A stretch of 7,007 nucleotides of DNA from a virus. Taxonomy: Duplodnaviria; Heunggongvirae; Uroviricota; Caudoviricetes. The notes under the pieces are model-generated. The model saw nothing but the letters and a program-made list of their open reading frames with translations. It was not told the origin of the DNA and ran no database searches. Both the position numbers and the translations under genes were made by a program. The stretch is from the IMG/VR virus record IMGVR_UViG_2690316343_000005, one strand, 5' to 3'. Of this stretch, positions 2,757 through 7,007 are shown in pieces; position 1 is the first letter of the stretch; the number at the start of each line of letters is the position of its first letter.

Positions 2757-3044
2757 TCAATCCTGCTCAAGATTGTAGATGAGTTTATTCTTCAGCAAAA
2801 GCAGAAAACCAGCCTTAAAACCAATCTCTTTCAAAACCCGTAATGATGTGACAAATTCGTCCTCACGCAAAATAAAACCGTCCGTCAGAAGTCCATTACA
2901 AAAATAAAATAACACAGCACCGCTCTTCCTTTGTTGAGATTGCAAACATCTAATGCGGCAATGGCTGACAATCGCTCCATTCTCAACGCGCACAGCATAG
3001 AGGCCATTTTCACTAAAAATTTCACGCAATTCTTCGATTTTCAT
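2757..3044 (-). CDS. Small hypothetical protein, copy 2 (MKIEELREIFSENGLYAVRVENGAIVSHC...), divergent C-terminus
   Basis: 95-aa ORF beginning inside the second 252-bp repeat copy, with the same RBS context as copy 1. Sits just downstream of the hok terminator and a promoter-like TTGATT-N16-TAGAAT. Confidence 0.4.
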   Translation of the reverse strand: MKIEELREIFSENGLYAVRVENGAIVSHCRIRCLQSQQRKSGAVLFYFCNGLLTDGFILREDEFVTSLRVLKEIGFKAGFLLLLKNKLIYNLEQD

Positions 3045-3213
3045 CTTCAGAATCCTTCCAGATAAATAGCTCTCCCCTGTTCGGGGTCCATCCCTCTTCT
3101 CCCTGCGCGCTACTTAAGTGAGTCGATTCTATCTGCGAAGGTGCGCGAATCAAATTCACCGGAAATAAACAACAAAAAACCCGCCGAAACGCTGAGAGAT
3201 CACAGCGATGGGC
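2962..3213. repeat. 252-bp direct repeat, copy 2
   Basis: See copy 1; identical length with scattered substitutions. Confidence 0.8.
3126..3153 (-). promoter_or_regulatory. Putative sigma70 promoter for the small ORF (minus strand TTGATT-N16-TAGAAT)
   Basis: Minus-strand -35 TTGATT (plus 3148..3153) and -10 TAGAAT (plus 3126..3131), 16-nt spacer, immediately downstream of the hok terminator. Read by eye only. Confidence 0.3.
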
Positions 3214-3293: not shown

Positions 3294-3633
3294 TTACTTC
3301 CTGGATTCGTAGTCTACGAAGACAGCGACCTCCGTCTGGCCGGTTCGGATTCGTACCTCACAGAGGTCTTTCCTCGTTACCAGTGCCGTCACTATGACGG
3401 TNNNNNNNNNNNNNNNNNNNNNNNNNNNNNNNNNNNNNNNNNNNNNNNNNNNNNNNNNNNNNNNNNNNNNNNNNNNNNNNNNNNNNNNNNNNNNNNNNNN
3501 NNNNNNNNNNNNNCTCCGTCTGGCCGGTTCGAATTCGTACCTCGCAGAGGTCTTTCCTCGTTACCAGTGCCGTCACTATGACGGTTAAACAGATGACGAT
3601 CAGGGCGATTAACATCGCCTTTTGCTGCTTCAT
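3294..3633 (-). CDS. hok: Hok-family type I toxin (51 aa), split in this assembly by the N-gap and a 72-bp duplicated overlap
   Basis: ATG at 3633..3631 with AGGAG 9 nt upstream. Reads MKQQKAMLIALIVICLTVIVTALVTRKDLCEVRIRTGQTE (3514..3633), then gap, then ...EVAVFVDYESRK with stop at 3296..3294. Removing 112 N and the 72-bp duplicate gives exactly 156 nt. Near-identical to E. coli HokD/RelF as recalled. Confidence 0.85.
3402..3513. other. Assembly gap (112 N) flanked by a 72-bp near-identical overlap (3330..3401 vs 3514..3585)
   Basis: The flanks differ at two positions (G/A, A/G), both synonymous in hok. Confidence 0.95.
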
Positions 3634-3839
3634 AGCCTGCTTCTCCTTGCCTTTCGGCATGTAAGAGGCTAACCTACATGTGCAAAGCATGAAATTGGCC
3701 TCAGATTAATGTTAAGCGTCTTGCCGGACGCGTAATGTTAACTGGGGCTTTTCTCTATCTGCCTTTTGGTGTTCATGCCTGAAGCAGATAGCCTCAAGCA
3801 CCCGCAGTCATTCTACTTACCTCGCCAATATGAAATCAA
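3634..3839 (-). promoter_or_regulatory. hok promoter and long 5' leader (tac-like element; expected mok/sok region)
   Basis: Minus-strand -35 TTGATT (plus 3834..3839), 18-nt spacer, -10 TAGAAT (plus 3810..3815). The leader begins with GCGGGTGCTTGAGG, complementary to the 3' UTR element. The ~170-nt leader fits hok/sok-type loci. A sok promoter could not be pinpointed. Confidence 0.4.
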
Positions 3840-3860: not shown

Positions 3861-4547
3861 TCACTCCTTCTCTTCTTTACCGTAGTGGAGTTGACCAATT
3901 TTGATAAGAGGGCGTCCCTGAGATTTGCGGTGTAGATTGGTATCGCGCAGAGAATACACACAGCCACAATATTCCTGCTGATAGAATTTTTCGCGCTTGC
4001 TGATTTCAATCATACGGGACGAGCCGCCCTGCTTGCGCCAGTTATAATCCCAGTACACCATGCCCGGATAATGCGCGACGGCTCGCCGCCCACAGTCGTT
4101 AACCTGCTGCATATTTTTCCAGCGTGAAATGCCCAGTGAACTGCTGATCACACTGAAACCATTTTCAGCGGCGTACAGCGCTGTCCGCTCAAAACGCATG
4201 TCAAAACACATGGTGCAACGGATCCCTCGTTCGGGCTCCCATTCCATTCCTTTGGCTCGTTCAAACCAGTTGTCTGTGTCGTAATCAGCATCAATAAACG
4301 GCACGCCGTGTTGTTCAGCAAAGCGAATATTCTCATCCTTACGAATTAAATACTCTTTCTGAGGATGAATGTTCGGGTTGTAGAAAAAGATGGTGTAGTC
4401 GATTCCCGAGGCCTGAAGCGCCTCCATCACCTCACCGGAACATGGAGCACAGCAAGAGTGCAGTAGTAGTTTGTTTGCCCCGTTTGGGAGCTCCAATTTG
4501 GGCCGTTTGAAATCAGCAACTGTCATAAATATGTTTATTGGGGTCAT
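3861..4547 (-). CDS. queH: QueH-like epoxyqueuosine reductase homolog (DUF208 family, Fe-S enzyme)
   Basis: 228-aa ORF with [15 protein letters not shown] near the N-terminus plus conserved [19 protein letters not shown] and QEYCGCVYS motifs typical of DUF208/QueH. An alternative ATG lies at 4526; neither start has a clear RBS. Confidence 0.8.
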
Positions 4548-5545: not shown

Positions 5546-6292
5546 CTACTTAACAACCCTCGAATGGCTAACATTCGGACGCCAGCTCTCCCAGTTAAAA
5601 TTCACCCAGCGCCCGCCGTTCATGACCATGCGATCCATCACCCGCTCGCCGAGCAATGTTTTCATCACCTCATAGTTCAGGTTTGTCAGCATCCCCACGC
5701 TGCGCATCGACGCTGTCCGGCGATCAACAATCTGGTGCAGCACCACCTGCTCGTTTTTCGTCTCGCGCTGAATGCCAATTTCATCAAGAACCAGCAGATC
5801 CACTTCGCACAGCTCCCGCAAAAATTTTTCGCCTGACTGCCCGTCGTCATAGCTGGCGTGCAGGGCGCTCATAACATCAGCCACGGTAACCACAATCACT
5901 GTCTGACCGTCTTTCAGCAGGCGATTCCCGATAGCTGCCGCTAAGTGATTCTTCCCGGTACCAGGTTTTCCGCTGAACGCAAAATTTGTACACCCGGTCA
6001 TCAGTTCATCGGCGATGGATTTCGCCTGGCTTAACGCGTATCGCTGGCCGTCGTTCTGCACCTGGTAATTCGCAAACGAGCATTTACGGTGCAACGGCTG
6101 GATGCCTGAGCGATTCAGAATTTTTTCCACCCGCAACTGGCGATTCAGGCGGTTGATCTCCTCGCTACGTTTCTGGCCTTCAGCAAGTTGCCACTCGCGC
6201 CACTCCGCTACCGTTCTGAATGGGGCGGTTACATGTGGCGGGGTCAGTCGGCGGATGCGTTCCAGAACGCCGCCTGTCGCAATATTTTTCAT
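5546..6292 (-). CDS. DnaC-like replicative helicase loader (IstB-like AAA+ ATPase)
   Basis: 248 aa with Walker A FSGKPGTGKNHLAAAIGN and Walker B DLLVLDEIG. Collinear high similarity to E. coli DnaC as recalled (NRSGIQPLH, LGERVMDRM). Confidence 0.9.
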   Translation of the reverse strand: MKNIATGGVLERIRRLTPPHVTAPFRTVAEWREWQLAEGQKRSEEINRLNRQLRVEKILNRSGIQPLHRKCSFANYQVQNDGQRYALSQAKSIADELMTGCTNFAFSGKPGTGKNHLAAAIGNRLLKDGQTVIVVTVADVMSALHASYDDGQSGEKFLRELCEVDLLVLDEIGIQRETKNEQVVLHQIVDRRTASMRSVGMLTNLNYEVMKTLLGERVMDRMVMNGGRWVNFNWESWRPNVSHSRVVK

Positions 6293-6298
6293 GGTCCG

Positions 6299-7007
6299 TT
6301 ACCCCCTGAAGCCTGGCGGGATCGCACTGTCCGGCAACGAGACGGTGTTAACCTGTCGGAGCAACGTCTCAGGCCGAACACCTTTCGGCGCGAACAGGCC
6401 CTGGTATTCATTGGCGATGCTGTGTCGAATCACCTGCTCAGGTGTAAAACCCTGCTGACGGAATTTTTCCAGTTCCCGTATCGCCCCGTTAGCGCCCTGC
6501 TCCGTTCGAATCGGTTTTCGCAATGCCTGTCTGAACCGGACCCACTCATGCCAGAGTGTTTCCGGCAACCAATCGGGCAGCTCAATAGCCTCCGGCTCGA
6601 ATTTTTTAGACGCTCGTTTTTGGCGAGGGGGAGATCAGTATTTAGATCTTCCTCTTCCTCTTCCTCTGGTAACGCTTTTTGATCCGTTTGTGTAACGCTG
6701 GCAGCGTTACCTTTTCGTTTCAGTTCGCGTATTTTTGTTACTCGCTCGTTTGTAACCGCCCGTTTTTTTTAGAGCTTTTTCCGTTATGACGTTCAAAGTT
6801 AGGTAGAGAAAGCCCTCCGTCATTTTCGACCAGCCATCCAACCTGAATTAACGCATCAGCAAAACCAGACATAAAAGTGATGCGATCTATTGCACTTTTT
6901 GTAACGCCGCGAGCGTTACAATCTGCATTACCGTCTATCATTTGTTGATCCGCCCATGCCCAGAAGCGAATAACCTGAGGTAGCCTGAGTTTAACGGACA
7001 CTCCTTC
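6299..7007 (-). pseudogene. Replication initiator (YdaU/DUF1376-like, O-protein analogue) interrupted by two frameshifts at homopolymers; N-terminus may extend past the right edge
   Basis: Three consecutive open frames on the minus strand join into one protein if one A is added at the 8-nt run (plus 6773..6780) and one at the 6-nt run (plus 6602..6607): MSVKLRLPQV...GKSSKK|RAVTNERVTKIRELKRK...PEEEEEEDL...AKNERLK|FEPEAIELPDWLPETLWHEW...GFRG*. The stop is 6 nt before the DnaC-like ATG. Confidence 0.6.
6633..6770. repeat. Origin-like sequence cluster inside the replication gene: 3 GATC sites in 52 bp, (GAGGAA)x3, perfect 9-bp inverted repeat GTAACGCTG-g-CAGCGTTAC and related TTTGTAAC(C)GC motifs
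   Basis: GATC at 6633, 6645 and 6681; cttcct x3 at 6649..6667; inverted repeat at about 6691..6709; similar motifs near 6669 and 6755. Confidence 0.3.

Follow-up and report, generated by a model that had tools for sequence, protein, structure and literature searches.

A YdaU-type replication-initiation gene in a Rac-like prophage, very probably a genuine pseudogene bearing three lesions

At the right-hand end of the stretch of DNA analysed here (the window, 7,007 nt in all), a gene of phage replication-initiation type is spread over three reading frames. The question it raises is whether the gene is dead in the organism or only misread in the draft. The earlier note had favoured misreading, ascribing two frameshifts to under-called homopolymers. 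We conclude that the locus is very probably a genuine, recently decayed YdaU-type pseudogene of a Rac-like cryptic lambdoid prophage, in a lineage essentially identical to Shigella sonnei, and that it carries three independent lesions. The features on which the argument draws are the following.

6299-6975, minus strand: remnant of a YdaU-type replication-initiation gene, a pseudogene, holding codons 36-262 and the stop codon in three frames (tblastn, DNA alignment).
5546-6292, minus strand: ydaV (RefSeq name), intact, coding for a 248-aa DnaC-like helicase-loader ATPase (NF009043, phrog_50).
6763-6770, minus strand: run of eight A (T8 on the plus strand), first frameshift, exceeding the A6 of intact genes by two bases.
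6626-6632, minus strand: surviving copy of the 7-bp direct repeat TCCCCCT, site of the deletion (alignments with intact copies).
6602-6607, minus strand: run of six A (T6 on the plus strand), without lesion.
6647-6667, minus strand: (GAGGAA)n tandem repeat of the poly-Glu linker (TRF, period 6, 3.5 copies).
6973-6975, minus strand: GGT, one copy of a 3-bp target-site duplication (flanks in related loci).
6976-7007, plus strand: left terminal 32 nt of IS600 (IS3 family), TGAGGTAGCCTGAGTTTAACGGACACTCCTTC, identical to annotated IS600 left ends.

We characterized the gene through an intact homologue, the 262-aa protein WP_038340159.1 of E. coli FDAARGOS_944 (locus L001, positions 1600-2388), whose DNA is 98.3% identical to that of the window. 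Over its whole length (1-262 of 277 profile positions), this protein matches phrog_2509, ‘replication initiation protein’, with E=1.2e-89, a match that bears out the earlier assignment of the gene to the phage replication-initiation type. Weaker matches were obtained to phrog_678, ‘replication initiation O-like’ (7.3e-26), and to phrog_6451, ‘primosomal protein’, and the C-terminus shows a faint, sub-threshold similarity to DnaT in NCBIfam (E=0.006). A Pfam search with the intact protein returned no family, and a literature search on ydaU/ydaV replication and Rac found no paper. The PHROG family annotation thus points to the YdaU-type protein as a putative replication initiator. The pieces in the window resemble the homologue closely enough to belong to PHROG 2509 (97-99% identity, 85% for the linker piece), while a single uninterrupted ORF with its own start codon is missing. 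The locus is a pseudogene of the YdaU-type (PHROG 2509) family, not a functional member of it.

The right half of the window has all its genes on the minus strand. Reading from the right-hand end, the region 7007-6299 is followed by ydaV (6292-5546), DUF977, a 137-aa ORF, QueH and a hok homologue, beyond which lie more lambdoid late-regulatory genes. The QueH homologue (epoxyqueuosine reductase; 3861-4547, minus strand; PF02677, E=1.9e-65) is placed downstream of the replication module in the early region of the prophage. The order dicA, dicC/cro, ydaT, ydaU, ydaV, DUF977 is common to Rac-like prophages, and the lineage of the window shares the gene order of the Rac-like YdaU/YdaV module, with DNA 93% identical to that of phage Rac (MN652886). 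It differs from that module in that its initiator gene is dead, through IS600, a 10-bp deletion and a run lengthened by two bases. The initiator gene precedes the gene of the DnaC-like loader, as is expected in a lambdoid early operon; the same order is found in the three intact copies that we aligned, namely L001, Rac (L002) and L006.

The earlier note had also described an intact DnaC-like partner downstream. This is confirmed: ydaV follows directly, 6 nt separating the stop codon of the ydaU-type gene from its start, and its product matches NCBIfam NF009043 over residues 1-248 with 510 bits. The product also matches phrog_50, ‘DnaC-like helicase loader’, and scores 1.7e-91 against the DnaC equivalog, under the cutoff of that model; the exact protein occurs in 5731 blocks of the sequence collection searched. 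The intact partner had been taken to argue for a sequencing artefact, for which it is weak evidence. The pair resembles the O/P genes of phage lambda in forming a two-gene module, where the initiator gene is followed at this 6-nt spacing by the helicase-loader gene, and in the ‘O-like’ match of the intact homologue. In contrast to lambda, the partner is a DnaC-like AAA+ ATPase and not a P protein, and the C-terminus of the initiator homologue is only faintly DnaT-like.

When the intact 262-aa protein was compared with the window by tblastn, three pieces were recovered, in agreement with the earlier description of three parts in three frames.

6983-6765, frame -1: homologue residues 33-105, 97% identity.
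6768-6589, frame -3: homologue residues 104-162, 85% identity; this is the linker piece, which spans the deletion.
6634-6302, frame -2: homologue residues 152-262, 99% identity, E=3.5e-74.

The gene is indeed broken by two frameshifts, as had been stated, and these are the A8 run and a 10-bp deletion. The proposed repair was simulated: with one A added to each run, a single ORF with no internal stop resulted, again as claimed. The resulting product is not that of the intact gene. It carries one extra Lys, and its linker reads AKNERL in place of NPPRQKRAS (9 to 6 residues). The apparent success of the repair has a simple origin. An insertion of two bases and a deletion of ten each have the same effect on the frame as a missing base, so that a single added base works at both sites. 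Moreover, the linker and C-terminal frames are both open over about 200 nt (6634-6433), so an extra base anywhere within this zone would seem to mend the gene; runs of 6 nt or more number 13 across the 7007 nt of the window, and a homopolymer inside the overlap is therefore unremarkable. By contrast, a repair guided by the homologue, in which two A are removed and 10 bp restored, yields a product that agrees with residues 36-262 of the intact protein at every position.

The comparison of homopolymer lengths with homologues, which the earlier note had proposed, gave different answers for the two runs. At the first, an A6 is found in the intact copies L001, L002 and L006, and also in L015, L021 and L022, which are broken at other sites; the eight A of the window are thus two too many. 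Twelve other lesion-bearing loci have A8, S. sonnei 53G has A9 and L017 has A7. In 53G, the ninth A restores the N-terminal part and the linker to one frame, and a 224-aa product is called there. This A9 could be either true slippage or a calling error in one or the other assembly. At 6602-6607, L001 and L006 have the same AAAAAA as the window (AAACAA in Rac MN652886), and a second frameshift in this 6-nt run was rejected on that ground. The first junction thus coincides with a homopolymer, as had been proposed for both, while the second lies elsewhere.

The second frameshift is the loss of 10 bp, TCCCCCTAAA, between 7-bp direct repeats at 6626-6632. In the intact gene, the site reads GATC-TCCCCCTAAA-TCCCCCT-CGC, and the window lacks one TCCCCCTAAA unit; the undeleted allele of the site is TCCCCCTAAATCCCCCT. 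Among the aligned loci, the window and 13 others carry the TCCCCCTAAA deletion, which was not found in L001, L002, L006, L015, L017, L021 and L022. Close to this site, the (GAGGAA)n repeat varies in length between strains without changing the frame. The window has n=3; values range from 3 to 10 in deletion-bearing loci, and are 3 in L001, L002, L006 and L015 and 4 in L017. Expansion of the repeat may have been faster after the death of the gene.

The third lesion, which the earlier note had overlooked, lies at the edge of the window. Homology to the ydaU-type gene ends at 6975, and positions 6976-7007 reproduce without mismatch the left ends found in two annotated IS600 copies of E. coli PV0838. 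The first 11 residues of what had been described as the N-terminal part of the gene, EGVSVKLRLPQ, are accordingly the translated end of IS600. The remnant starts at codon 36, with no start codon, codons 1-35 being split off by the insertion. The sequence TGAGGTAGCCTGAGTTTAACGGACACTCCTTC is multicopy, with up to 43 places per genome, and has the terminal inverted repeat starting with TG that is found in known copies; the transposase gene is oriented rightwards, past the end of the window. In related loci, a complete IS600 occupies the same junction, with codons 1-35 of the ydaU-type gene across it. There, the upstream flank ends in GGGAAGGT just before the element and the downstream flank resumes with GGTTATTCGC (L005, L009, L011, L012, L013 and L014), for an intact gene reading GGGAAGGTTATTCGC. 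The doubled GGT is seen at this junction in the related loci, the window itself holding one of the two copies. The adjoining gene in these loci codes for a 385-aa HTH_Tnp_1/rve protein, which PGAP labels ‘IS3-like element IS600 family transposase, programmed frameshift’. A scan of contigs of species-representative genomes for the exact IS600/ydaU junction gave 0 matches; this lineage is evidently not among the species representatives.

In all, 16 related loci were recovered through exact-protein matches to ydaV and to a 74-aa C-terminal fragment of the broken gene, the fragment being called as a gene of its own in 448 blocks of the collection. Their alleles, with those of the intact copies, are distributed as follows.

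A8, 10-bp deletion and identical IS600 junction: L005, L008, L009, L011, L012, L013 and L014.
A8 and deletion, contig ending a few nucleotides from the junction: L018, L019 and L020 (short draft contigs).
A8 and deletion, no IS, native start codon: L007 and L016.
A9 and deletion, no IS: L010, which is HE616528, S. sonnei 53G (PMC5447701).
A6, no deletion, intact: L001, L002 and L006.

The A8 run and the 10-bp deletion are thus shared with 12 other assemblies, comprising closed genomes and short-contig drafts; the species identity S. sonnei was confirmed for 53G alone among the matching assemblies. The window is 99.9% identical to L008, L011 and L012, gap-free over 3494 nt. In L008 (CP146292.2), the immunity region and the 35 codons of the 5′ end of ydaU are missing, their place upstream being taken by an IS110-type transposase gene, a sign of further IS-mediated rearrangement of the same prophage.

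Outside this group, the lesions are different or missing. Neither the A8 run nor the deletion was found in any of the 681 complete E. coli genomes that covered 80% or more of the query (5,426 searched); the best match there was 98.3% identical, and the matches listed were all longer than the query (mostly 785 vs 777 nt). A megablast of the E. coli genomes with a 60-nt probe around the A8 run gave no match, a probe probably limited by low-complexity masking and the 28-nt word size. A contig scan allowing any length of the A run retrieved two A6 copies only, those of S. flexneri SFBU1023 (L021) and E. coli ECMA0423 (L022). Each has lost another 10-bp segment, CTAACGGGGC, between GGGCG repeats. 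Further breaks of the same gene are an insertion of one A in L015 and the A7 run of L017. The same gene has been inactivated independently in other lineages, as a dispensable cryptic-prophage gene that has decayed more than once.

The quality of the draft itself deserves attention. Runs of N at 2401-2411 (11 bases) and 3402-3513 (112 bases) mark the window as a scaffold of draft contigs. Around the second gap, the flanking 72-nt segments (3330-3401 and 3514-3585) share 97% identity, a sign that contig ends were left unmerged. One ORF there, the 110-aa ‘Hok’ (3358-3690, minus strand), is an artefact that runs through Ns. DUF1367 looks cut short at residue 117, a point that falls on the 11-N gap; this truncation and the duplication at 3330-3585 were rejected as biology, the N gaps lying at exactly those places. 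A paralogous segment, 2143-2400 vs 2957-3213 (87-94% identical), stops exactly at the 11-N gap. This join may link contigs of two lambdoid prophages, with RusA/DUF968 to its left and Rem/DUF1367 to its right.

The N gaps and the unmerged 72-nt overlaps, the position of one lesion inside a homopolymer and the difference between A8 in the window and A9 in 53G would all fit a gene that is intact in the organism and that homopolymer miscalls in a draft have made to look frameshifted twice. We consider this highly improbable. The second lesion lies outside any homopolymer and removes 10 bp, and the first run differs from the intact one by two added bases, a change opposite in direction to under-calling; under-calling, the explanation preferred in the earlier note, fails on both counts. 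Both lesions recur, identical, in the 12 other assemblies, and homologues sharing the frameshifts were precisely the observation that the note had named in advance as refuting an artefact. Nor are there similar errors nearby. Over 3.46 kb, the window differs from the intact prophage L006 by indels at the A8 run and the 10-bp deletion only, and the other 22 of its 23 runs of at least 5 nt show no difference in length. The IS600 insertion inactivates the gene whatever the state of the runs. The recurrence and IS600 instead uphold the alternative that had been named and then set aside, that of a truly inactivated gene in a cryptic prophage. Local base errors are possible in a gapped draft scaffold read without its reads, and the length of the A run could be off by one base, which would not affect the main conclusion.

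Two further readings accept the sequence as it stands and give the A runs a function; to each we assign a minute probability. The cell could bypass the lesions by -1 ribosomal frameshifting or transcriptional slippage at both runs, producing a near-full-length initiator with an altered linker at a low level. A -1 slip is equivalent to one added base, and the simulated additions gave an open frame. In the incoming frame, the runs also form formal slippery heptamers, A_AAA_AAC and A_AAA_AAT. These heptamers, at 6763-6770 and 6602-6608 on the minus strand, are probably a coincidence. Conservation of the site, which is expected of a programmed ribosomal frameshift, is not found: the intact homologues, which have A6 and lack the deletion, keep to one reading frame, and unrelated lesions break the same gene in other lineages. 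Two slips of low efficiency in sequence would leave a negligible yield. In the window, IS600 parts the start codon and the first 35 codons from the remnant, which makes the idea moot there. In IS-free S. sonnei strains of the L007/L016 type, double slippage might supply traces of initiator and sustain a marginal activity of the cryptic prophage origin, a prospect that we judge extremely slim. The other reading takes the A run as a phase-variable (contingency) switch of a prophage replication gene, for which run lengths of 6, 7, 8 and 9 among related loci could be invoked. However, A8 and A9 always occur together with the irreversible 10-bp deletion, so that switching of the run could not restore function, and the presence of A8 in all 12 other carriers (53G aside) shows a stable rather than a hypervariable run. 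This reading is no more credible than that of recoding.

Genuine decay of the gene, which we retain, would have proceeded in steps whose order and mechanisms can be proposed from the distribution of the lesions. The 10 bp were probably lost between the 7-bp direct repeats by replication slippage or short-homology recombination, and the A6 run probably grew by two bases to A8 through strand slippage. Both changes are also present in strains without the IS, which suggests that they came first and that IS600 arrived later, in a sub-lineage. A simple insertion of the element after codon 35, with duplication of a 3-bp target, cut the remnant off from its start codon, ribosome-binding site and upstream promoter. 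The remnant, lesions aside, still encodes residues 36-262 of the FDAARGOS_944 protein exactly, indicating that the decay is recent. The intact state of ydaV would be explained if the time since inactivation has been too short for its own decay. A functional initiator cannot be produced from this locus.

Such a history is familiar in Shigella. IS600 is one of five IS that have expanded in all Shigella species; in S. sonnei, IS insertion accounts for 50% of pseudogenes, and another 12% combine an IS with another inactivating mutation (PMC7373316). The locus resembles the IS and indel pseudogenes described by Hawkey et al. 2020 (PMC7373316) in its interruption by IS600 and in lesions that are shared within the lineage and vary between sub-lineages; in the parts of that work used here, we noted no substantive difference, and a ydaU-type gene is not named in them. 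As a point of method, the possibility of mending a gene by adding one base to a homopolymer does not identify the lesion: frames may overlap in the open state for hundreds of bases, and a nearby homopolymer is then easy to find. For annotation, the locus should be marked as an IS600-interrupted pseudogene and its frameshifts should not be ‘corrected’. Its biological interest is small: it represents ordinary pseudogene decay of the Shigella type, already well described, and adds one more IS- and indel-inactivated prophage gene to a sort catalogued by hundreds in Shigella.
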